From the sequence record PZ049723.1: a stretch of 44,509 nt of DNA. One strand, 5' to 3'. The notes under the pieces are model-generated. The model was not told the origin of the DNA, made no database searches, and was given only the letters and a program-made list of their open reading frames with translations. Position 1 is the first letter of the stretch. Each line of letters opens with the position of its first letter. The translations under genes and the position numbers were made by a program. The stretch is from a phage. This document shows, in pieces, positions 1 to 44,509 of this stretch.

Positions 1-14
1 CAGGAGATGATACC

Positions 15-233
15 ATGAAAACTTTAATTATGATTTGTGCGGTTCTTTTGTCCGGTTGTGCCGACATGCCGTCTAAAATCTGCGACGCAACATACATGAA
101 TAGCGGCATTGATTATGCGGTCCCTGTGTATGGTGTCGCAGACTTCTCCGGGCATAAAATGCTAAGGGCGGGTTATCCGTTTAGCTTCCAGTACGTGTCG
201 GTAGACCATTTCAAAAACACCACCTGCGAATAA
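15..233 (+). CDS. Putative secreted lipoprotein; candidate receptor-blocking superinfection-exclusion protein (Cor/Llp-like by position)
   Basis: ATG at 15 with AGGAGA RBS 7 nt upstream; N-terminal signal peptide with lipobox LLSGC; 72 aa; next to the tail-tip genes but on the opposite strand; hairpin terminator follows. Confidence 0.5.
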   Translation: MKTLIMICAVLLSGCADMPSKICDATYMNSGIDYAVPVYGVADFSGHKMLRAGYPFSFQYVSVDHFKNTTCE

Positions 234-253
234 TCCCCGAAAGGGGATTTTCC
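234..253. terminator. Hairpin terminator between convergent genes
   Basis: tcccc-gaaa-gggga stem-loop followed by TTTT on plus strand; lies between plus gene end (233) and minus gene end (254). Confidence 0.5.
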
Positions 254-928
254 TCAGTCGTAGTTGGCAGTGTTAATCGCCATGATTGCGTTGCCGTTAT
301 TCGTATACCCCACCACATCCCCCGTGGCGTTCCCTGACGACGCTGCCGATATACGCGTTCGCGACCCATCAAATCTGGCCCCCGTGTACGCCGTTACCGA
401 TACTACCTGCGGCTGGCCCTGCACAAAAAACCGGATCAGCGTAGACCCCAATATGCCCGGTGCGACGGCGTAGCTGCCGTTTAGCGTCTGGTCAATGTTA
501 ATCCCCCCGTTAGCGCCAGGCGATCCGACGGTAACTAAATCGCTTAATACGCGACTCTCATTAGTAAGCACTAGCTTCCCCGTCTTATCCCAAATAGCGA
601 AGCCCCACCGCGGAAGGGTCTGTGGGAATATGGCAAAGATGTAAGCCGTCATAGTGAAGCCTTTCCCGAATGGATTGCTGGCGCTCACCTTCACCACATT
701 ACCAACGCGAGAAGACCCTACGACGGTCGGCTGGGCGGTGTGCGTAGTTTTCACAAACGCTATTGCAGGGTAGTCACCGCCCAAATTAATATCGGCAGCC
801 GCCGACTGCGCAGTGCCGTTAGCCGAAGACCCAACAACCACACGGCGGAATAGACAAAACGGCGTCGATTCTGGCGTGATAAACGGGTTGCCGTTTGGTA
901 AGTCAATCAACGCGCCGTAATTAGCCAT
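254..928 (-). CDS. Hypothetical protein downstream of J-like gene (tail-associated by position)
   Basis: 224-aa ORF, ATG at 928 overlapping stop of upstream gene; Gly/Ser/Thr/Asn-rich; no motif recognised. Confidence 0.5.
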   Translation of the reverse strand: MANYGALIDLPNGNPFITPESTPFCLFRRVVVGSSANGTAQSAAADINLGGDYPAIAFVKTTHTAQPTVVGSSRVGNVVKVSASNPFGKGFTMTAYIFAIFPQTLPRWGFAIWDKTGKLVLTNESRVLSDLVTVGSPGANGGINIDQTLNGSYAVAPGILGSTLIRFFVQGQPQVVSVTAYTGARFDGSRTRISAASSGNATGDVVGYTNNGNAIMAINTANYD

Positions 929-1230
929 TAAGCTCGCTCCACAAAAACAATAACGTCACATTCAGATGCGGAGTAAACCCCGCCACCTACCGCACTTGCC
1001 GCGGAAACCGTGATAGTGTTCCCGCTGGCGGTTATTCTGCGTCCTGGCCCGACCGCGCCTTTATCCAGTGCGACCACGTATCCGACCTTCATCCCCGCCG
1101 GTACTGGGAACGACCACGCGCCTGATTTTTGTCCTTCCGCAAGATGAATCCTTCCGATCACGCTTACCGGTTTAATGCCGTAGTTGTTTGGGCGTCCTTG
1201 CGCGTCCCACGTTGCGATACCGAATGCCAT
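928..1230 (-). CDS. Hypothetical protein (tail-associated by position)
   Basis: 100-aa ORF, ATG at 1230 with GAGG RBS; follows J-like gene after a hairpin. Confidence 0.5.
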   Translation of the reverse strand: MAFGIATWDAQGRPNNYGIKPVSVIGRIHLAEGQKSGAWSFPVPAGMKVGYVVALDKGAVGPGRRITASGNTITVSAASAVGGGVYSASECDVIVFVERA

Positions 1231-1242
1231 AAATAACCTCGT

Positions 1243-1263
1243 TAAAAAGGGGCCAAAGCCCCT
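1243..1263 (-). terminator. Rho-independent terminator-like hairpin after J-like gene
   Basis: aggggc-caaa-gcccct stem; on minus strand followed by TTTTTAAC. Confidence 0.45.
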
Positions 1264-1266
1264 ATA

Positions 1267-4200
1267 CTACCAGCGACCAGTAAGCTCGCCAATTTGCACG
1301 CGTAAAACACCGTTCGCGTCTTTAACGCTGTAGTTGGTGTTGGTCTGCTTTGTACCACCACCGCTTCCAGTACCCAGGTTGATAAACGTCCCGTCTTTGC
1401 CTAAGCGCCATCCGCGCGTGCTGCCGTCGAAGTTATTCGATTGCAGCGTGTCTGTGATCTGCGCGAAGTTGATGGACGCGTTCTTGATGCGCGCCGTGTC
1501 AATATACACCTGCCCTCCGTCAACGATAAACGCGGACGAAAGCGACCCATTAGATGGGTGCATGATGTAGAACTGGTCGGCTTTGAATGCGATACGAGAT
1601 TTAACCGCGCTGCCAGACGTCACAACGGAAAGCTGCATACCGGCGTCATAGTAAGTCCCGTTATACGTCACGCCAGCCTTAAGGCTGTAAGTGGCGCTAC
1701 CTCCAGAGTGGTTAAACGAAGACGTCATCTTCTGCTCGATAGCCGCGGACTGCTGACCAAACTGCGCCGCGACCTGGGTCTTATACTCCGCCAGCGCGCC
1801 CGCTACGTCTGCCGTTGCCGTTTGTACCTGCTGGATAGCGGCTTCCTGTTCCGAAAACTTAGCGGCAACAGTTTGCTGGTACTGGGCGAACGCTTGTTCC
1901 TGCGTACTCTGCGCTGTCTGCAACGTGTGGATTGCCGCTTCAGCATCGTCAAGGCGAGTACCGATCAACGTTTCCAGTTGCGCTACCGCCTGGTGGGCCT
2001 CTGCCGCCACGTTATACGCGACCGAGATTTCTGCATAAATCCCCTTGTACTCGGCACGGGCGTTAAACAACTGCTGCGCGTCGGTGAGCATAGCCTCATA
2101 AATGCCTTGCGGCATGGTGTCGATCGCTTCCTGGAAGCGTTTACCATCTTCGGAAGTCAGGAACTCGTCATCAAGCCCCTTCATATACTCGTCAACATTG
2201 TCACTCACCTGCCCTTCAAACGGGGCAGACCAGTCCGATAGGTTGCCGATTTTATCCGCTACACGGGCGCGTAACTGCTGATAGATGCCGAACTCCAGCG
2301 ACGTTTGCGCATACTCCGACCCAGGATATGGGACGTTGGTTAAGAACTTCCATTCCGTTTCACCGGTCTTGCGCACTTCAAGCTCGGTGTACGAAATATC
2401 CGTCGCGGCGTTGTTGTGGTTCCACTTCCACAAAATCTGGTGAAGGCCCGAAATCGCGTTAGTGATGATAGGCGCGTTAAGCCCACCGAGACGACCTTCT
2501 ATCGGCGTGATGGCAGACGACACCCACGGGGATGAAATCTCGCCCATACCGATTGCGCGGACGCGTGCCTGGTAGTTACCGGAGAACACGTTAGGGATGT
2601 GCGCGCCGTTCGATGCCGTGCGGGGGATGTTCACCCAGTCGTTACCCCACTGGATTTCCATATTCTGCAAGCTGGTACGTCGCCACTGGATTTCATACAC
2701 CACGGCATCCTTCACCGGAGGGAATACAATATCCACGTTGGTGATTAGCTGGCCTTGCGATGAGATCTGCGACGGGGTGATGGTAACGGATTCCGGCCCC
2801 TTCATTACACCGTCTGGCACTTGCGTAAAGATGCCTGGGTCTAGGCGCGCGCCATTATCAACGGCATCATATTTGCTATCGTTGTATTCAATCCCGCGCA
2901 CCGAAAAAGTGCTGGTAGAGTCGTCATACTCCAGGTCGGTGATGCGGAATTTCTGCAACTGGATATCATCGCCATCAACGCAAAATGGTTGATCTGGAAT
3001 CGGGTCTGCATCCAGCGCGGTTTTTAGCGTAACCTTGTTGCCGTTGACGCTGGCGATCTCGCGAGTCTCCACATTACCGCTATCGGTGCGTACCAGGAAT
3101 TTATCACCGGGGCGGAACGTGATTTCGCTGTCTGTGTTCAGCACAGTCCGCGTGCCTGGATCTGACAACAGGCGACCGCCGCGGATCTCGAATCCGCCAG
3201 AAATATTAGTATCTGCGATCGCGACTACGCTACCGGGAATAAAGAATAACCCCTCCATGCCAACCTTAAAGCTAACTTGCTGGTCAAGCTGGTTGGAGAT
3301 TAGCGCCCAGTGCCCCCGGCGTTGCGCTTCTGATTCACGTGTACAGCCGATCGCCGTAATATCCAGACGGTTAATCTTATGGCGGCGTACCAGTTCGACA
3401 CGCTGCCCCGTAGCAATGGCATCTTCATAGTGGTTCTTCGGGTTGCCGTATGCTACCGCGAAAGTGGAGTACCGCGTTTTCTGGCTGCCAGATGCGTAGT
3501 CGAATCGACCATCAATAACCGAGGCGTTGGTGATAGTGTGCGACACTGCTGCGACAGGTTGGTCACTGACGATATTCAACATCTGGTTTCCCCACCAGGT
3601 CATCCCGGCGAAGATGGCAGCTAAATCCTTAAGCACGGTCCAGGCGTCTGTCTGCGACTGGATGTACATATCATTCTTAAATCTGATTTCCCGTCCGCCG
3701 TTGCCGTCGCTGACCAACTGATCGCAGCGCTGCGCGATCTGGTAGAGCGCGTACCGGTTCAGCATTTGCGGTTTGATCCGGCGACCGAGGCCGAAGCGCT
3801 CAGTAATACAAATATCGTACCAGTGCCACGCAGGGTTATCAGTCCATGCGCGTTTAAACGTGCCGTCCCAGTCCCCGGAATAGGTATGATTAATCGGGTC
3901 ATAGTTGTTCGGCACCAGCACTTTACGCCCTTTGCACTTGATGGACACGCGCGGGATGTTCTGGAACGCTTTGGCGTCGAACTCCACGAACAACAGCGCG
4001 GTTAGCGGGTATCGCAGGCGGGCGTCGATAATCTCAGTGATGGATTGCACCCGGATATCATTAACCACTTTCGCCGATGTGGAGTCTGCCGTTATGCGGT
4101 GCACCTCCACGCGCCAGCCGGTGTTAACGTTCGGCGGTAGCTCGATGCGGTGATCGCGCTCGTATAGCGACATTGTTTTACCAACGGCAGCGAAGGTAAA

Positions 4201-4686
4201 CTCACGCGGGTCGGCGTTATCCGTATACACAACGATCTTATAGTCGATGCGCCCGCCCACCAGGTCGCCATTATCTTCGCTAGTGTACAGGGCCGGAATG
4301 CCGATTCGAATGCGCACGGCGTCAAGACTGGTGTCATTAATCTGGCGCACCCACGGCGTGCCGTTTTCCAGTTTTACGCCGACTGACTGCTCACTTTCCA
4401 CCGCTGAAAATCCGTGGATCACATCCTGGTGCTGTGTGCCGGGGCGGAACTCCACGCGCGCGCCGGGGAAGTTTTCCGACAGGTCGGCGTTCTGGATCGG
4501 TGTTCCGTCCAGATATACGCGCTGCCGTAATTCGCTGGCGCTGGTAATACTTTCGAATTCACCTTCCCCCAGCGCAAGCAAGATGCGGATTTTAGCCAGG
4601 GAATGCAGGCTATCCGGCGTTTCCTGCGGGGTGTGCTGTTTGCCGCCGCCGCCTTTATGGCCCGTGACGTCGTAGATAATCGTCAT
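1267..4686 (-). CDS. Tail tip / host specificity protein (lambda J-like central tail fibre)
   Basis: 1139-aa ORF, ATG at 4686 overlapping (ATGA) the upstream gene; size and position after I/K/L-like genes are typical of J; fibronectin-like middle region. Confidence 0.85.
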   Translation of the reverse strand: MTIIYDVTGHKGGGGKQHTPQETPDSLHSLAKIRILLALGEGEFESITSASELRQRVYLDGTPIQNADLSENFPGARVEFRPGTQHQDVIHGFSAVESEQSVGVKLENGTPWVRQINDTSLDAVRIRIGIPALYTSEDNGDLVGGRIDYKIVVYTDNADPREFTFAAVGKTMSLYERDHRIELPPNVNTGWRVEVHRITADSTSAKVVNDIRVQSITEIIDARLRYPLTALLFVEFDAKAFQNIPRVSIKCKGRKVLVPNNYDPINHTYSGDWDGTFKRAWTDNPAWHWYDICITERFGLGRRIKPQMLNRYALYQIAQRCDQLVSDGNGGREIRFKNDMYIQSQTDAWTVLKDLAAIFAGMTWWGNQMLNIVSDQPVAAVSHTITNASVIDGRFDYASGSQKTRYSTFAVAYGNPKNHYEDAIATGQRVELVRRHKINRLDITAIGCTRESEAQRRGHWALISNQLDQQVSFKVGMEGLFFIPGSVVAIADTNISGGFEIRGGRLLSDPGTRTVLNTDSEITFRPGDKFLVRTDSGNVETREIASVNGNKVTLKTALDADPIPDQPFCVDGDDIQLQKFRITDLEYDDSTSTFSVRGIEYNDSKYDAVDNGARLDPGIFTQVPDGVMKGPESVTITPSQISSQGQLITNVDIVFPPVKDAVVYEIQWRRTSLQNMEIQWGNDWVNIPRTASNGAHIPNVFSGNYQARVRAIGMGEISSPWVSSAITPIEGRLGGLNAPIITNAISGLHQILWKWNHNNAATDISYTELEVRKTGETEWKFLTNVPYPGSEYAQTSLEFGIYQQLRARVADKIGNLSDWSAPFEGQVSDNVDEYMKGLDDEFLTSEDGKRFQEAIDTMPQGIYEAMLTDAQQLFNARAEYKGIYAEISVAYNVAAEAHQAVAQLETLIGTRLDDAEAAIHTLQTAQSTQEQAFAQYQQTVAAKFSEQEAAIQQVQTATADVAGALAEYKTQVAAQFGQQSAAIEQKMTSSFNHSGGSATYSLKAGVTYNGTYYDAGMQLSVVTSGSAVKSRIAFKADQFYIMHPSNGSLSSAFIVDGGQVYIDTARIKNASINFAQITDTLQSNNFDGSTRGWRLGKDGTFINLGTGSGGGTKQTNTNYSVKDANGVLRVQIGELTGRW

Positions 4687-11157: not shown

Positions 11158-11172
11158 TGTAGTATTCTCCAA

Positions 11173-11196
11173 TAAAAAAGGGGCCGTGCTGGCCCC
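11173..11196 (-). terminator. Terminator/attenuator hairpin after major tail protein gene
   Basis: ggggcc-gtgct-ggcccc stem followed on minus strand by TTTTTTATT; sits between major tail gene end (11227) and chaperone start. Confidence 0.55.
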
Positions 11197-16036: not shown

Positions 16037-16065
16037 TTGCAATCATCGTATTGGTTGCATATATT
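16037..16065 (+). promoter_or_regulatory. Sigma70-like promoter with embedded TTGGTTGCA motif pair
   Basis: TTGCAA (16037-16042), 17-bp spacer, TATATT (16060-16065); TTGGTTGCA at 16051-16059 and 16065-16073; GAGGA RBS and ATG at 16095 follow. Confidence 0.45.
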
Positions 16066-16094: not shown

Positions 16095-16859
16095 ATGAGA
16101 CTGACGAAAGACATTAAAAACCAGATTCTGGCTAACATCCTGCGCGACCACGAAATCGCGACCGAAGCCAAATCAATAATGATGGACTCGCGCGACCTTG
16201 CGTACGCCATTACGCTGGACTGTATGCCGGAAGGCATTCGCACGTTCGCCGAGCTATTCGCGCACATTGAAGCAATCAGCGATGACCCGTCGCAGATGTA
16301 CGGCGTCTGCGTATACACCAACAAGGCGACGTATAGTTATAACACCGACCGCCCGAAAGGTATCGGCAGCGTTTACGACGCCACTTTCGAAATCAATGCG
16401 GGCGGAAATGTGCGCACACTGTCATTGAGCGGTGACGGACGACAATACCGAGTACATCGCGGATACTGGGAATATAAATACATGAATAAGCTATCTCCCG
16501 ATCTCGGCGATATTGTACCTGGGTACGAAGAAGTAATGCTGGCTTCTGTGTGCGAAGTGGACGAGGATGGGAAAGCGCTGCCGATCTATAAGCCGCGCTG
16601 TCGTGCAGAGTTCCCGGCGGATCATGATTTCTGCAAGCGCCTTGACCGTAACGATAAGGCCCGCCGCGATTTGCGAGCTAAGTATGACGCGTTCAAACTC
16701 ACCGTTACCGGTGTGCTGGACCTGCACAATACTGACAAGAAGCTGATTAAGGCATGGCCTGAAGTTGAGCAATTCATACCATACCCGGACAAGCAAAAAT
16801 CCACGGCGGTGGCGCTGGACGTGAAAACACTCAACGAGATTTGCGGCATTCCGCGCTAA
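16095..16859 (+). CDS. Hypothetical protein; opposite-strand moron inside the structural cluster
   Basis: 255-aa ORF with own promoter-like sequence, GAGGA RBS and bidirectional terminator; only plus-strand gene between 234 and 30437; no recognisable motif. Confidence 0.6.
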   Translation: MRLTKDIKNQILANILRDHEIATEAKSIMMDSRDLAYAITLDCMPEGIRTFAELFAHIEAISDDPSQMYGVCVYTNKATYSYNTDRPKGIGSVYDATFEINAGGNVRTLSLSGDGRQYRVHRGYWEYKYMNKLSPDLGDIVPGYEEVMLASVCEVDEDGKALPIYKPRCRAEFPADHDFCKRLDRNDKARRDLRAKYDAFKLTVTGVLDLHNTDKKLIKAWPEVEQFIPYPDKQKSTAVALDVKTLNEICGIPR

Positions 16860-26003: not shown

Positions 26004-26213
26004 TTAAAGTTTAACCGTGCCGCACTTGTCGCACACGATGATTTCATCTTGCGGGTTGTGGTCGCATTCGCTTTCGTCGATCTCGTCGGCGGTTTTGCTG
26101 TCGCCGTCGCATACCGTAGCGATGCCGTAATAGGTGTAGGAGTCGCGGCAGCTGTCAAGGTCGATATTACCTTGCAAGAAGCCGTCCATTAGCGTTATTT
26201 GCATTGGTGTCAT
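26004..26213 (-). CDS. Small acidic Zn-ribbon-like protein
   Basis: 69 aa with Cys pairs (C..C .. CDKC) and acidic stretch. Confidence 0.4.
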   Translation of the reverse strand: MTPMQITLMDGFLQGNIDLDSCRDSYTYYGIATVCDGDSKTADEIDESECDHNPQDEIIVCDKCGTVKL

Positions 26214-26479
26214 TTGCTCAGTCTCCAGTGTTTGCCTACCCGCTCAACGGCGGGCTTCCGGCGTAATGTAATACGGATCCCCATTGGTTGCAAGGAGGTC
26301 CGCACCCTGAAATCGTGTTGTGCTGCGAACTGGTGCAAGTAGCGAGTCTGCGTCAACGGCTTTACGTCGTCGCGATAGCACCAGAATACAGATTCACCCT
26401 CAACCGCATTCTCAGCCCATATTCGTATGCAATGCAGGGGAATATGCCACGAAAGCTGTTTGGCGCGCCTACGGCTCAT
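26210..26479 (-). CDS. Hypothetical protein
   Basis: 89 aa ORF with overlapping stop/start to neighbours. Confidence 0.4.
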   Translation of the reverse strand: MSRRRAKQLSWHIPLHCIRIWAENAVEGESVFWCYRDDVKPLTQTRYLHQFAAQHDFRVRTSLQPMGIRITLRRKPAVERVGKHWRLSK

Positions 26480-26956: not shown

Positions 26957-27015
26957 TTCTACCCTCCTGTTGGTGTGCAACCAATGTAGCAAGGTGCCGG
27001 GTTGGATGCAACCAA
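26957..27015 (-). promoter_or_regulatory. Promoter-like sequence with two TTGGTTGCA motifs and conserved leader
   Basis: On minus strand TTGGTTGCAT, 17-bp spacer, TACATT, then GGTTGCACACCAACA and GGAGGG RBS; the last 15-mer is shared exactly with 16066-16080. Confidence 0.45.
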
Positions 27016-29706: not shown

Positions 29707-30036
29707 TTACTTAGAAGTTTTATTATTGCGTACCCAAGAGCGCACTGTGCTCTGATTAATTCCGGTCAACTCGGCAATCATCGCCCAGGATTTGCCCTCG
29801 GCGCGCAAACGGATAACCTGCTTTTTGTATTCTTCCATTTCTTCATTGTGTTTTTGCAGCTTGCTTGCTGCCGTACCGTTGAGTAATTCCAGCCGGGCGC
29901 GCAATTCTTTTTCGACACTGCGCAGGCGCTCGATTTCAAATAACACCGCACCCACGGCATCGGTATAAGCCCATGACCGGCTTGTCTCACTGCAAACAGT
30001 CTTCGTTAACATTTCGATTGCGTCGTTTACATTCAT
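29707..30036 (-). CDS. HTH transcriptional regulator (LuxR/sigma region-4-like C-terminal HTH)
   Basis: 109 aa; C-terminal SWAMIAELTGINQSTVRSWV; first gene of the leftward operon from the divergent promoter region. Confidence 0.6.
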   Translation of the reverse strand: MNVNDAIEMLTKTVCSETSRSWAYTDAVGAVLFEIERLRSVEKELRARLELLNGTAASKLQKHNEEMEEYKKQVIRLRAEGKSWAMIAELTGINQSTVRSWVRNNKTSK

Positions 30037-42268: not shown

Positions 42269-42844
42269 ATGTACGGCGAATATGAAATATCCGGTAAACA
42301 ATTCCACCTGGCGGCAATGATAGCAAGCATCGAGTTTGATCAATGGCGCTTAAAGTCTGACGCATGCAAGCAAAGCCGACTGGTCGGTGTGCTGGGCGAA
42401 ATGTTTGCGGGCATGTATCTCGAAGGGCAAGCAGGCGGTCGCAGTTGTATACCGCAGGGTCTGCTCATGCGTACCGGCCTGTTTAGCGCCAACACCATTG
42501 ACCGCGGCGATATCATCATGGTCGGCAAGCGCAAGGTTAAGTCCGGTCCAGACTTCCGCGAGCATGTGGTCGATGCCGTATGGACCTACGAGGTTAAGGC
42601 CACCAGCGGCATCCGTAGGGGCCTGGTTGAGGCACGTTGCGCTCGCGAGTATCTCACTCGTCGAGTTGCCGGTGTTATTCTGGTTGGGGTATCGTTCGGG
42701 CAACATAGCGCCAGCGGCGTGATCGAGGATATTGCGGAGCCATACGTGATAGTGAACGACTGGCCCCTGGTGGAAGTGGACGGAAAGGAATATTACGAAA
42801 GCCCGCTTGTGCGGCGAAAAATAGACTGGGAAAACTCAAACTAA
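42269..42844 (+). CDS. Hypothetical protein
   Basis: 191 aa; GAGGA RBS; contains DAVWTYEVKA, which could be a PD-(D/E)XK-like D...E.K core but is unverified. Confidence 0.5.
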   Translation: MYGEYEISGKQFHLAAMIASIEFDQWRLKSDACKQSRLVGVLGEMFAGMYLEGQAGGRSCIPQGLLMRTGLFSANTIDRGDIIMVGKRKVKSGPDFREHVVDAVWTYEVKATSGIRRGLVEARCAREYLTRRVAGVILVGVSFGQHSASGVIEDIAEPYVIVNDWPLVEVDGKEYYESPLVRRKIDWENSN

Positions 42845-42866
42845 AAACAGGGGCCATGTGGCCCCT
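42843..42866. terminator. Bidirectional terminator between convergent early and tail-fibre genes
   Basis: Palindromic aggggcca-tg-tggcccct stem flanked by A-run upstream and T-rich sequence downstream. Confidence 0.55.
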
Positions 42867-42871
42867 TATCC

Positions 42872-44443
42872 TTATTTCTCCGCCAACTTACTTTCTAAGG
42901 CCTCAATCTTCGCCGCCAAATGCTGAACAGTCGCGACAAGGTCAAGTAGCAGGACGTTTTCGTCTAATGCCAGAAACTCTTTACCAGTTGCGTCGGCGTA
43001 CTTGCGAACATACTGCGGGTCGATCTCTTCCAACTGCTGCGCGATAAAACCACGTCTGACCGTTTCCTTTTTGTCGTAATTATAAACAAAGGAAGAGTAT
43101 TCCATAGCCATGACGTTAGTGTATGCAACTTGAGTATCGATCCGGGCGATATCATGCTTCAGCGCCCTGTCGGATACCGGGGATTTTGAGAAAATATAGT
43201 TAACCGACCCAGTGTTGTTGCCGAAGGTAATATCGTATGACTCGGCGTTAAAGAAAGTATTCCGAATGATATCGCCGTTAGGCTGTATTCCTGACGCCAT
43301 ATCATAGTCATAGACCTGCGAAATCATAGCGTTAGGGTGTGACGACACCGATGTGGGGTGGATCAACGCCCCGAACGAAATAAAGTTACGCCACCCGCCA
43401 CCAGTCGCACCAGTGCCGCCGCCGACAAAACCTACGTGACCCGAGTATTGACCGTTATTCCATGTATTCGCGAGGGTGACGTAGGTATTACCAGGCGACG
43501 CCCCGGTGGACGCTGGATTCAATCCTTTGTTAAAGATGATCTTGCCATCATATTTAAAGTCCCACGACGGCGAGGTGCTTGGATCGAGGGCGTTAACGGT
43601 TGCCAAACGGGTCCAGATGTCTACGTTATTACGCCCCTGAATCTGAAGCGATGTTCTGTATTTTTCGCCCCCGGCAACGAACACAGATGAGTCAAATCGA
43701 CCGCCGTATACTTCTGTGCCATTCGCCGGATCTGAAGCGTAATTATTGCGTAAACCCCATAGTCCCACGTCATCAAGACCGCGCCACACCCACCCTTTAG
43801 TCGCAGAGTCAAGAGGGTCGACTGGGTCCGCGCCTACGCGAAGCGGTCCTGACGGCATAAGGTTAGCCCACGACGCACTTTTGTCCGCAAGCCCGGCGAG
43901 GTTGCCGGATTTGGTTAGCAGATTGTCTGGGTTTACGCTTTGCGCCCATTCTTCGGCCTCATTGCGAAATCCTTGCGCTGCTGCTTCTGATGCCGCGGCT
44001 TGTTGTTGCAGGTTGCGCATTTCAACGGGGTCAACTTCCTTCAGCAATTGCGAAAGATAGCCCCACGACATACCCTGCATAACTTGCCCGTTCGGCAGCG
44101 TTACCGTGATTTCCTCAGCGTCACCGAAGATTGCACGCCAGTTGTTTTCGTCCGCGATCATCAAGCGCAATGCTTTCTGTGCCTGGACTGTTACGCCCAT
44201 CGTCGCCAGTGACATGGTATCGCGCGCAACGCCATCCCAGGCAAGGCCGGTTGCCGTGGGGCCGTCGAACGGCAGCACCAGCGTAAGCGCGGTGTCGCTT
44301 TCGACGGACGCGATAGCAACAGTGTAAGGGACTTGCCCCACCACCAGCGTTAAGAAGTCGCCAGCTTTAAACGCGGTGAACGTCGTGCCTACCCCGACAA
44401 CCGCCTTGCTGTTATTCGTTACGGATAGTGTACCCGCTGCCAT
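42872..44443 (-). CDS. Tail fibre protein with C-terminal intramolecular chaperone (peptidase S74-type) domain
   Basis: ATG at 44443 with GAGGA RBS (an upstream in-frame ATG at 44470 lies inside a TTGGTTGCA motif); C-terminal RGFIAQQLEEIDPQYV ... LAAKIEALESKLAEK matches the chaperone-domain signature. Confidence 0.7.
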   Translation of the reverse strand: MAAGTLSVTNNSKAVVGVGTTFTAFKAGDFLTLVVGQVPYTVAIASVESDTALTLVLPFDGPTATGLAWDGVARDTMSLATMGVTVQAQKALRLMIADENNWRAIFGDAEEITVTLPNGQVMQGMSWGYLSQLLKEVDPVEMRNLQQQAAASEAAAQGFRNEAEEWAQSVNPDNLLTKSGNLAGLADKSASWANLMPSGPLRVGADPVDPLDSATKGWVWRGLDDVGLWGLRNNYASDPANGTEVYGGRFDSSVFVAGGEKYRTSLQIQGRNNVDIWTRLATVNALDPSTSPSWDFKYDGKIIFNKGLNPASTGASPGNTYVTLANTWNNGQYSGHVGFVGGGTGATGGGWRNFISFGALIHPTSVSSHPNAMISQVYDYDMASGIQPNGDIIRNTFFNAESYDITFGNNTGSVNYIFSKSPVSDRALKHDIARIDTQVAYTNVMAMEYSSFVYNYDKKETVRRGFIAQQLEEIDPQYVRKYADATGKEFLALDENVLLLDLVATVQHLAAKIEALESKLAEK

Positions 44444-44509
44444 AGCTGAATCCTCATAAATTGGTTGCATTCTTGGTCGAGCGGTGCAATACTAAAACTC
44501 AACCAAATA

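Follow-up and report, generated by a model that had tools for sequence, protein, structure and literature searches.

A side fibre with an S74 chaperone domain and an adjoining cor gene across the ends of a circular Dhillonvirus map

The lateral tail fibre gene and its domains

The DNA analysed here is a phage sequence of 44,509 bp (PZ049723.1), referred to as the window, in which a lateral tail fibre gene lies on the minus strand at 42872–44443, next to one end, and a gene for a small lipoprotein, cor, lies on the plus strand at 15–233, next to the other. The fibre gene encodes 523 aa plus a stop codon (42872–42874, minus strand) and was assigned by its match to the phrog_1980 tail fibre (E 4.9e-123); the syntenic genes in six relatives are annotated as lateral tail fiber, tail fiber or tail tip protein. 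Its start at ATG 44443 is indicated by a ribosome-binding site, GAGGA (reverse complement of 44451–44455), and by every annotated relative. The start at ATG 44470 given by the mechanical ORF was rejected, as it has no ribosome-binding site and all of the relatives begin with MAAGTLSV.

The protein could be divided into four segments, all encoded on the minus strand. The N-terminal anchor (aa 1–164; 43952–44443) is near-invariant across the genus, with nearly all columns identical over aa 1–160 in an alignment of 7 phages, and its first 72 aa are similar to the N-terminal part of PDB 23gd_B (E 1.3e-4). A connector or shaft segment (aa 165–224; 43772–43951) was delimited by sequence alignment and by a PDB match, in which aa 171–224 correspond to residues 526–579 of the DT57C L-shaped fibre chain 8hqz_d. 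Just before this connector, the closest relatives, which are of the B2 type (607 aa), carry an extra coiled-coil repeat block of 84 aa (AEGFK..IKTQT..), which B2, GeorgBuechner and JLBYU60 have and the window, Pubbukkers and mckay lack. The connector is followed by a variable distal domain (aa 225–423; 43175–43771), presumed to be receptor-binding, and by a Peptidase_S74 intramolecular chaperone domain (aa 424–523; 42875–43174). The anchor would dock the fibre to the tail, and the short shaft would lead to the horizontally exchangeable distal domain, which presumably binds surface glycans reversibly.

The earlier note had read a C-terminal signature as that of an S74-type chaperone, and this was confirmed by Pfam, by the Ser/Lys pair and by fold matches. 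The PF13884 match spans aa 424–479 (E 9.2e-11, 42.3 bits against a cut-off of 22) and includes the signature RGFIAQQLEEIDPQYV (aa 464–479; 43007–43054), and all full-length homologues of the fibre carry PF13884. Ser424 (codon 43172–43174) and Lys429 (codon 43157–43159), within SDRALK, do not vary among 7 diverse Dhillonvirus fibres or among 53 homologues, in which the pair is numbered S261/K266 of the fragment. The catalytic pair of endoNF, Ser911/Lys916, is likewise five residues apart. In an AF2 monomer model built from the 53-sequence alignment, which had a mean pLDDT of 63.9 and is useful for the chaperone only, the C-terminal 100 aa were modelled at a pLDDT of about 90, and a Foldseek search retrieved for it the MyRF ICA domain (7dc3, E 1.5e-5, probability 1.00) and the endosialidase chaperone (3gw6, E 4e-3), with TM-scores that are modest because the remainder of the fibre model is poor. 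Reasoning from the chaperones of endosialidase and T5 pb1 fibres, we infer that the domain would promote trimer folding and then cut itself off at Ser424 by means of Lys429.

Comparison with related phages, which the earlier note had suggested for the two termini of the fibre, indicated a conserved anchor, an exchanged distal domain and an invariant S74 pair. The amino acid identity of the distal domain is 72–89% to B2-type Dhillonviruses, 60–65% to homologues in T1-like siphophages and phiEco32-like podophages and about 40% to those in some T5-like phages, and the domain is swapped for unrelated sequence in GeorgBuechner, JLBYU60, Opt212 and mckay. DNA homology to relatives with other fibre alleles stops at 43951–43978, and further breakpoints were located at 42875–42879 at the 3' end of the fibre gene, at 238–251 and at about 850. 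As judged from these alignments, the fibre is subject to modular exchange with breakpoints at domain borders, and the window combines a B2-type distal domain with a receptor-binding locus of the JLBYU37/Opt212 type. Among solved structures, the fibre matched only the DT57C fibre (connector and chaperone), the fibre chaperone 8jov and 23gd_B (72 aa). No solved receptor-binding tip matched the distal domain in a sequence search of structures or in a fold search with its low-confidence model (mostly below 50 pLDDT and confident over part only), and the solved T5 pb1 tip had no sequence match to the fibre.

At its 3' end, the fibre gene is convergent with a plus-strand ORF of 191 aa (42269–42844) on the side of the replication block, and the two meet at a G+C-rich hairpin at 42849–42866 (−14.7 kcal/mol on the plus strand and −18.4 kcal/mol on the minus strand; z −2.4 and −3.8), which was flagged by the terminator scan on both strands. 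The bidirectional terminator that the earlier note had placed between the convergent genes is therefore present as described, with the qualification that its T-run is strong on the fibre's strand only (GTTTTTAGTT on the minus strand, weak TATCCTTATT on the plus strand). Leftward transcription of the fibre gene would stop at this shared hairpin. The features characteristic of Dhillonvirus lateral fibres are all found in the gene, namely the conserved anchor, the position after gpJ, the receptor locus and the exclusion gene, and the terminator that faces the replication genes.

The window junction and the gene order around it

The alignments indicate that the window is one unit length of the genome of a Dhillonvirus (HK578/SO-1-like), an E. 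coli siphophage. About 150 Dhillonvirus records had 87–97% nucleotide identity to it in the regions tested, and its length is within the span of the genus, in which genomes are 43–46 kb (PMC8594841). More than 40 Dhillonvirus records contain a synthetic join of 43810–44509 and 1–700 as one uninterrupted match, and a single alignment with GeorgBuechner extends from 43951 through the junction to 4194. The spacer between the ATG of the fibre gene and that of cor is 80 nt in the closed window (66 + 14) and 79–80 nt in six relatives. Because the joined ends align as one piece with the same spacer in relatives, the ends join and nothing is missing between them. The proposal that the window is a whole genome with joining ends is thus borne out by the junction matches, the spacer length and the GeorgBuechner alignment; as for extra sequence between 44509 and 1, which the proposal had named as speaking against it, the relatives run through the junction as one piece. 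An end overlap, terminal repeat or assembly duplication was sought at the window ends, and none was found.

Headful (pac) packaging by PhageTerm and circular assemblies have been reported for Opt-212 and UDS3lw (PMC9022532, PMC13348001). Since Dhillonviruses are reported to be headful-packaged and to give circular assemblies, the point within the 80-nt spacer at which the map was cut is arbitrary. As judged from these relatives, the phage would be packaged in the same manner with no fixed ends, and its ends are probably permuted, with packaging starting near terS (at about 21.3–21.9 kb), about 22 kb away, and not at 1/44509.

When the circle is closed, the fibre gene is the next minus-strand gene after the gpJ-like tail tip gene (1267–4686, minus strand; Pfam FNIII-A_GpJ, Phage-tail_3 and Phage_Tail_Tip), which is the last large gene of the tail operon, and the two genes 3' of it, encoding 100 aa (928–1230) and 224 aa (254–928). 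Only the 219-nt cor intervenes, and the fibre gene lies 319 nt past the last tail gene. The separation of the fibre gene from the tail operon, as previously described, thus holds in linear coordinates only and is an artefact, because the cut point is arbitrary. The divergent arrangement of the fibre gene (leftward) and the lipoprotein gene (rightward) across the window ends was confirmed. The order J, 100-aa gene, 224-aa gene, cor on the opposite strand, fibre gene and terminator is the same in six relatives, and the arrangement of the fibre, cor and receptor-binding genes is the standard published architecture of Dhillonvirus, already known from the BASEL collection (PMC8594841).

The two genes 3' of gpJ (254–1230, minus strand; phrog_557 and phrog_425) are a candidate terminal receptor-binding locus, a concept that was taken from PMC8594841; in the BASEL studies, a receptor-binding/exclusion locus follows gpJ in Dhillonvirus (PMC8594841, PMC11990801). 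The locus has 95–97% nucleotide identity to those of JLBYU37, JLBYU60, Teewinot and Envy, which are FhuA-dependent (PMC10373560), suggesting that the terminal receptor is probably FhuA. The 224-aa protein occurs as two alleles with 52% identity, and the same Cor type (89% identity) is found with both. Since both alleles are paired with the same Cor type, the FhuA assignment is drawn from the close relatives only; Pubbukkers, Opt212 and mckay are not mentioned in the text of the FhuA paper (PMC10373560), where Pubbukkers appears in a table.

The cor gene and its probable promoter in the spacer

The earlier note had counted the lipoprotein as part of the receptor-binding locus; by homology, however, the product of the gene at 15–233 is instead Cor, a superinfection-exclusion lipoprotein of 72 aa, which matched phrog_1119 Cor over residues 1–72 (E 2.3e-26). 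Its identity is 80–93% to Dhillonvirus Cor, 43–51% to T1-like Cor and 41% to HK022 Cor (whole length). A ribosome-binding site, AGGAG, is present at 2–6, and direct reading of the translation gave a signal peptide MKTLIMICAVLLSGC, followed by A, with a lipobox LLSGC whose cysteine is Cys15, and further cysteines at 23 and 71. Pfam gave no family for Cor or for the 100-aa, 224-aa and 191-aa proteins, whose names come from PHROGs only. A mechanism for Cor has been proposed by analogy with Llp, with which Cor proteins share a conserved disulphide (PMC9586334). By the same analogy with T1/phi80 Cor and T5 Llp, the Cor of the window may inactivate the terminal receptor, probably FhuA as judged from the adjacent locus and from PMC9586334, and such a block would prevent both superinfection and the loss of progeny on cell debris. 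The cor stop codon is separated from that of the convergent 224-aa gene by a hairpin at 232–251 (AATCCCC-GAAA-GGGGATT plus a T-run; −14.1 kcal/mol on the plus strand and −16.9 kcal/mol on the minus strand; z −3.1 and −2.7), where the breakpoints at 238–251 fall; this hairpin was not flagged by the scan tool, because its T-run overlaps the stem.

A candidate sigma-70 promoter for cor, TTGCAT-N17-TGcAATACT, was located in the spacer on the plus strand (44465–44493), with the −35 hexamer TTGCAT at 44465–44470, a 17-nt spacer, TG at 44485–44486 and the −10 hexamer AATACT at 44488–44493. Its hexamers match at 3/6 and 4/6 positions, a total of 7/12 that fails the scan threshold of 9/12. The window has 18 sites of this quality, as compared with 13.6 in shuffled sequence, so that the hexamers by themselves do not exceed chance. 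The class with a TG-extended −10, to which the site belongs, was represented by 6 sites against 0.8 expected. Across 18 genomes, no column varied in the −10 (0/6) or the TG (0/2) and one did in the −35 (1/6), as compared with 10/17 in the spacer between them. A scan of IMG/VR with Cor yielded 13 loci, two of which, T1-like and with another upstream context, were left out of the spacer statistics. Because the −35, TG and −10 are conserved while the spacer varies, a rightward cor promoter in the fibre/cor spacer is supported. The earlier note had reported TTGCAT-N17-AATACT as read across the window junction; the sequence is present, but both hexamers lie wholly inside the 3' end of the window, and only the ATG of the gene that they would drive, at 15, is on the other side.

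Overlapping the −35 on the plus strand is the 9-mer TTGGTTGCA (44461–44469), which is at the position where the earlier note had placed a motif. It occurs in 12 exact copies in the genome against 0.3 expected, and none of its 9 columns upstream of cor varies in 18 Dhillonvirus genomes; 11 copies are at syntenic sites in GeorgBuechner, and the element is found at about a dozen conserved intergenic sites. A literature search with TTGGTTGCA gave nothing on phage regulation among the matches listed, which were mostly listings of unrelated sequences. Cor is probably transcribed rightward from its own spacer promoter (44465–44493), one of a family of TTGGTTGCA-bearing promoters ahead of non-structural genes.

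As regards leftward transcription of the fibre gene, no sigma-70 promoter was found in the 80-nt spacer, either by eye or in a scan of a junction-spanning relative. A candidate, CGGACA-16-CATAAT, was found at 27–54 on the minus strand, antisense within cor codons 5–14 (scan 9/12), the equivalent of which in JLBYU60 is CTGACA-16-CATAAT (10/12). Within cor, 1 of 24 columns varied over nt 15–38, as compared with 11 of 27 over nt 39–65. Transcription of the fibre gene would begin at this antisense promoter in the 5' end of cor or, alternatively, reach the gene by read-through of the tail operon.

Alternative readings of the ends, the fibre and the spacer

It might be argued that the phage DNA molecule itself begins and stops at the window ends, with cos or direct terminal repeats there, and that the fibre gene is truly detached at one of them, in line with the linear form in which the window was given, with the HK1 record that stops near the fibre gene and with the Zumzum record that begins in the fibre/cor spacer. 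However, deposited relatives begin at many positions and most hold the junction internally and uninterrupted, the window has no terminal repeat, PhageTerm indicated headful packaging in two members of the genus (PMC9022532, PMC13348001), and a terminase site is implausible at a position that separates a promoter from its gene, 14 nt short of the start codon, and that is conserved within the sequences of relatives. This reading was graded as already largely refuted, and we give it hardly any credence. Another proposal that was weighed is that the protein acts as an enzyme, a tailspike or depolymerase that breaks down O-antigen or capsule, and is not purely a binding fibre, because the tail fibre of the Dhillonvirus UDS3lw is a predicted depolymerase with halo plaques (PMC13348001) and it was on endosialidase tailspikes that S74 chaperones were originally described. 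The UDS3lw fibre, however, is of another allele, to which the window matches only from the anchor on; the window fibre showed no similarity to a glycosidase, lyase or beta-helix family, and Pfam gives S74 only; the distal domain is just about 200 aa; the relatives of its allele in T1-like, T5-like and phiEco32-like phages are all annotated as tail fibres; and BASEL models Dhillonvirus fibres as a coiled coil with a T5-like tip (PMC11990801). An enzymatic fibre is thus considered very unlikely.

With respect to the spacer, it is conceivable, and we put it forward tentatively, that TTGGTTGCA is more than part of a −35 region and serves mainly as an operator, through which a DNA-binding protein encoded by the phage would control cor and perhaps the fibre gene as well. 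Besides the excess and synteny of its 12 exact copies, which are often in direct or inverted pairs, its position varies from over the −35 to within the spacer abutting the −10 and over the +1, a spread that fits operators better than a core promoter element. An inverted copy that matches at 7/9 positions is present 3' of the −10 (reverse complement TTGGTTGAG, at about 44497–44505, with the core CAACCAA at 44498–44504), and a small protein with weak helix-turn-helix matches (29707–30036) is encoded beside another copy of TTGGTTGCA. On the other hand, the inverted partial copy is less conserved, TTGGTTGCA contains TTGCA, which is usable as a −35, ancestry by promoter duplication could explain its recurrence, and neither a regulator nor literature support was found. 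A more elaborate and rather unlikely extension is that the anchor, the 80-nt spacer and the first 16 cor codons form a compact two-way switch, beyond being a recombination linker. An early TTGGTTGCA-type promoter would drive cor and the antisense promoter (54–27) in the signal-peptide codons would drive the fibre gene, so that the transcripts would start face-to-face with complementary 5' ends of about 30 nt; TTGGTTGCA would be the operator of a putative Dhillonvirus regulator, and the cor and early promoters would go down as the late fibre rises.

Significance and comparison with known systems

Taken together, a circular Dhillonvirus map with an S74-chaperone side fibre and an adjoining cor gene is, in our judgement, very probably the explanation of the locus. 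As the window is a complete, circularly closed genome, features near its two ends need to be read across the junction. The phage is an ordinary Dhillonvirus, and its fibre/cor/receptor-binding region represents the host-range cassette of this phage group, in which the mapped breakpoints show natural sites of module swapping that should be useful for host-range engineering, a principle that has already been published. The TTGGTTGCA promoter/operator family and the mode of fibre transcription are the only parts that go beyond the literature searched, and they raise modest regulatory questions.

Lateral fibres of Dhillonvirus have been described in the BASEL studies as a coiled coil with a T5-like tip and a C-terminal IMC domain (PMC8594841, PMC11990801), and those of the BASEL phages GeorgBuechner (Bas16, gp28) and RuthEpting (Bas85, gp29), as well as that of B2, share position, orientation, anchor and IMC domain with the window fibre. 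Compared with the B2 type (607 aa, 92.8% nucleotide identity), the window has the short 523-aa form without the 84-aa coiled-coil repeat, as does Pubbukkers. T5 pb1, whose role is the reversible binding of O-antigen (PMC9586334), and DT57C LtfA (PDB 8hqz) are likewise side fibres of siphophages with a C-terminal S74 chaperone, and LtfA matches the window fibre in sequence over aa 171–224 and aa 426–522, whereas both are about 1,100–1,400 aa, as compared with 523 aa here, and differ in the N-terminal anchor. The endosialidase of K1F/endoNF (3gw6) and the MyRF ICA domain (7dc3) belong to the same S74 family, with the same Ser...Lys spacing of 5 and a fold match, although in the window the domain belongs to a small fibre, in K1F/endoNF to a beta-helical tailspike and in MyRF to a eukaryotic transcription factor.

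The Cor of the window is similar to those of T1, phi80, HK022 and N15 and to T5 Llp in its size of about 70–78 aa, in its lipobox signal peptide, in a further pair of cysteines (C23 and C71 here) and in adjoining receptor-binding genes. Unlike in those systems, however, cor in the window is flanked by the receptor-binding locus and the side fibre gene, both on the other strand, and has a conserved candidate promoter of its own.

Closure of the genome and gene order

About 150-190 Dhillonvirus records matched both end regions and a 25-kb internal stretch at 87-97% identity, none of them identical to the window. When 43810-44509 was joined in silico to 1-700 and searched, this junction query gave one unbroken, internal alignment in each of more than 40 genomes. 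Between the fibre ATG and the ATG of the next gene, cor, lie 66 + 14 = 80 nt in the window and 79-80 nt in GeorgBuechner, B2, Pubbukkers, JLBYU60, Opt212 and mckay, one BLAST alignment to GeorgBuechner ran from 43951 through the junction to 4194, and no terminal overlap was found between the window ends. Taken together, these comparisons indicate that the ends join with no sequence missing, and the proposal of a whole genome with joining ends was borne out by the junction query. Dhillonvirus assemblies circularise, and PhageTerm made headful (pac) calls for Opt-212 and UDS3lw (PMC9022532, PMC13348001); by analogy with these reports, permuted and terminally redundant virion DNA would be expected. 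Position 1/44509 is a software-chosen cut, 14 nt ahead of a start codon. Base 1, just 5' of the cor RBS, is C in the window and T in 17 of 18 aligned Dhillonvirus genomes, which is probably a plain polymorphism located exactly at the cut point.

The structural genes, named by synteny with GeorgBuechner, are oriented leftward and extend from approximately 23.3 kb to 254, with gpJ (1267-4686 (-); Pfam FNIII-A_GpJ, Phage-tail_3 and Phage_Tail_Tip) followed by a 100-aa gene (928-1230 (-)), among the last structural genes, and a 224-aa gene (254-928 (-)), the last tail gene. The rightward cor (15-233, 72 aa) lies between the 224-aa gene and the leftward fibre gene (42872-44443 (-)), and this order was identical in all six relatives inspected. 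Because only 319 nt lie between the last tail gene and the fibre gene that follows it in the closed circle, the separation of the fibre gene from the tail operon, as described in the earlier note, is an artefact of linearisation; the divergent arrangement of fibre and lipoprotein genes was confirmed.

Fibre architecture and module exchange

A mechanical ORF listing placed the fibre start at ATG 44470 on the minus strand, which was set aside in favour of ATG 44443, as the latter has an RBS (GAGGA, reverse complement of 44451-44455), gives 523 aa and is equivalent to the start annotated in every relative examined. The whole protein was assigned as a tail fibre by PHROGs (phrog_1980, E 4.9e-123), and its sole Pfam family was Peptidase_S74 (aa 424-479, E 9.2e-11, 42.3 bits against a cut-off of 22), which includes the previously noticed chaperone-domain signature RGFIAQQLEEIDPQYV at aa 464-479. 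The gene is convergent with the plus-strand ORF 42269-42844, with a hairpin (42849-42866) between them. The bidirectional terminator proposed there was supported in that the scan flagged both strands and the folds, at -14.7 kcal/mol (+) and -18.4 kcal/mol (-), surpassed shuffles (z -2.4 and -3.8), but the T-run was convincing on the fibre's strand only.

In an alignment of seven Dhillonvirus fibres (424-721 aa), aa 1-160, the anchor, were almost invariant, the connector that follows the position of a coiled-coil block was conserved, and the distal region was unrelated between alleles. The S74 domain comes last, with Ser424 and Lys429 invariant in the seven fibres and 53 database homologues. 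The 84-aa coiled-coil repeat block was present in B2, GeorgBuechner and JLBYU60 and absent from the window, Pubbukkers and mckay, which accounts for the length difference of approximately 250 nt relative to the most similar fibre genes (B2, 92.8% nt identity). The missing block (AEGFK..IKTQTNQIK..) maps to 43952, between aa 162 and 163; the closest relatives, B2, Lzu_P3 and Kenya-K19, have 607-aa fibres with it, and database homologues of the window's allele are of 523, 548, 600 and 607 aa, which would fit a shaft changing length through repeat gain and loss. Separately, aa 1-72 (44228-44443 (-)) resemble the first 72 aa of the 199-aa PDB entry 23gd_B, "Distal tail protein gp20" (E 1.3e-4), and also phrog_9922, "minor tail protein", and may be a common tail-docking module.

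The breakpoints of DNA homology sit at domain and gene borders, namely at the end of the anchor (43951-43978), the fibre stop codon and terminator (42875-42879), the cor terminator (238-251) and, inside the 224-aa gene, approximately 850, and in the window a fibre of the B2 type occurs together with a receptor-binding locus of the JLBYU37/Opt212 type. Outside the genus, the distal domain was found at 60-65% identity in T1-like siphophages (DELF2, JMPW1), 60-62% in phiEco32-like podophages and approximately 40% in T5-like phages. Thus, the modular exchange raised in the earlier note does occur, and it extends across phage families. Modelling of aa 164-523 with AF2 (mean pLDDT 63.9) gave confident structure for no part other than the chaperone and one beta-rich stretch; the significant fold matches of the model were the MyRF ICA domain (7dc3) and the intramolecular chaperone of endosialidase (3gw6). 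Dhillonvirus fibres are described as having an N-terminal coiled coil, a T5-like tip and a C-terminal IMC domain (PMC11990801), and O-antigen or other surface glycans are argued in the BASEL work to be the primary receptor of the lateral fibres.

Cor and the receptor-binding locus

Along its entire length, the 72-aa product matched PHROG 1119, "Cor superinfection exclusion protein" (E 2.3e-26), with 80-93% identity to Dhillonvirus Cor, 43-51% to T1-like Cor and 41% to HK022 Cor. Its N-terminus, MKTLIMICAVLLSGC|A, is a lipobox, and two more cysteines are at 23 and 71. The lipoprotein, placed earlier within a receptor-binding locus, is by homology a receptor-blocking exclusion protein and not a receptor-binding protein of the phage. 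In phages that use FhuA, exclusion is mediated by Cor proteins, which are proposed to work like T5 Llp. This periplasmic lipoprotein binds FhuA, the outer loops of which it folds inward (PMC9586334). Window 1-1300 was 95-97% identical to JLBYU37, JLBYU60, Teewinot and Envy, which are FhuA-dependent by experiment (PMC10373560), and from this identity we infer FhuA as the terminal receptor and Cor target. The 224-aa candidate receptor-binding protein has at least two alleles, with only 52% protein identity to that of another phage locus (L003, 3661-4332); the alleles are unalignable as DNA between 251 and 850, and each occurs alongside the same type of Cor (89% identical).

Dhillonvirus genomes are known to carry after gpJ a "bona fide RBP locus" with a cognate superinfection-exclusion protein and, following these, a lateral tail fibre locus that is highly variable (PMC8594841). 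The gene arrangement, fibre architecture and packaging mode have already been described for the genus and the finding is ordinary; the small remaining point of interest is a regulatory motif and the manner of fibre transcription.

Transcription of the fibre gene and cor

No leftward sigma-70-like promoter for the fibre was found in the 80-nt spacer. It may be possible that the fibre is expressed by read-through from the tail operon; such transcription would cross the hairpin after gpJ (1263-1244) and that at 232-251 and run antisense across cor. It may instead be that a promoter antisense inside cor codons 5-14 serves the fibre, the candidate being CGGACA-16-CATAAT at 54-27 (CTGACA in JLBYU60, 10/12). 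In agreement with such a promoter, only 1 of 24 columns varies over cor nt 15-38, compared with 11 of 27 over nt 39-65, and the first 16 codons are kept even in genomes that otherwise have another allele of the exclusion gene, although coding constraint on the signal peptide could account for the same conservation. With this conservation across alleles, the fibre anchor, spacer and cor 5' end behave as a single homology unit.

Codons 1-16 of cor (15-62 (+); signal peptide and lipobox) are conserved as nucleotides in loci L016-L020 and L002 of other Dhillonviruses. Terminator-like hairpins with T-runs also occur inside the late operon, directly after the gpJ stop (AGGGGCTTTGGCCCCTTTTT; 1244-1263 (-)) and after the major tail protein gene (approximately 11170-11196 (-)); both escape the terminator scan, as their stem and T-run overlap. 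The two hairpins would attenuate transcription into the receptor-binding locus and fibre.

As the sole rightward gene between leftward genes, cor requires its own promoter. TTGGTTGCA is at 44461-44469 and TTGCAT-N17-AATACT at 44465-44493, so the promoter-like element noted ahead of the lipoprotein gene is present, but both hexamers lie inside the 3' end of the window and only the ATG at 15 is across the junction. The candidate is weak by consensus (3/6 + 4/6), and sites of this quality number 18 in the genome against 13.6 in shuffles, which is chance level. Sites with a TG-extended -10, the class of the cor promoter, number 6 against 0.8 expected. Among 18 Dhillonvirus genomes, no column varies in TTGGTTGCA (0/9), the TG (0/2) or the -10 (0/6), and 10 of 17 vary in the spacer. 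The TG-extended -10, this conservation pattern and the lone rightward cor raise the candidate above chance.

TTGGTTGCA has 12 exact copies in the window against 0.3 expected, at 16051, 16064, 23323, 26284, 39709, 39726, 41642 and 44461 (+) and at 26976, 27007, 30225 and 41629 (-), 11 of which are at syntenic sites in GeorgBuechner. By comparison with the ORF list, they lie between ORFs except for 26284 (inside ORF 26210-26479), often as direct or inverted pairs and usually with A just before. The copies overlie the -35, the spacer just before the -10, or the +1 of sigma-70-like promoters (16037, 27011(-), 39713, 41628 and 44465). A literature search turned up no description of the element, which may act either as a promoter module or as an operator. 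A 109-aa protein (29707-30036 (-); phrog_9366, labelled "transposase", with weak helix-turn-helix and repressor-like matches) is a candidate regulator; its gene adjoins the 30225 copy, where the two non-structural gene blocks meet divergently. The opposite-strand 254-aa gene inside the head-gene block (16095-16859 (+); phrog_1965), with a tandem TTGGTTGCA promoter upstream (TTGCAA-N17-TATATT, 16037-16065), is a second moron-like insert analogous to cor and is conserved in GeorgBuechner (bas16_0007).

The TTGGTTGCA promoters are upstream of non-structural genes and of this second opposite-strand gene, which fits cor being expressed separately from the late operon and probably before it. Such expression is known for the llp gene of T5.
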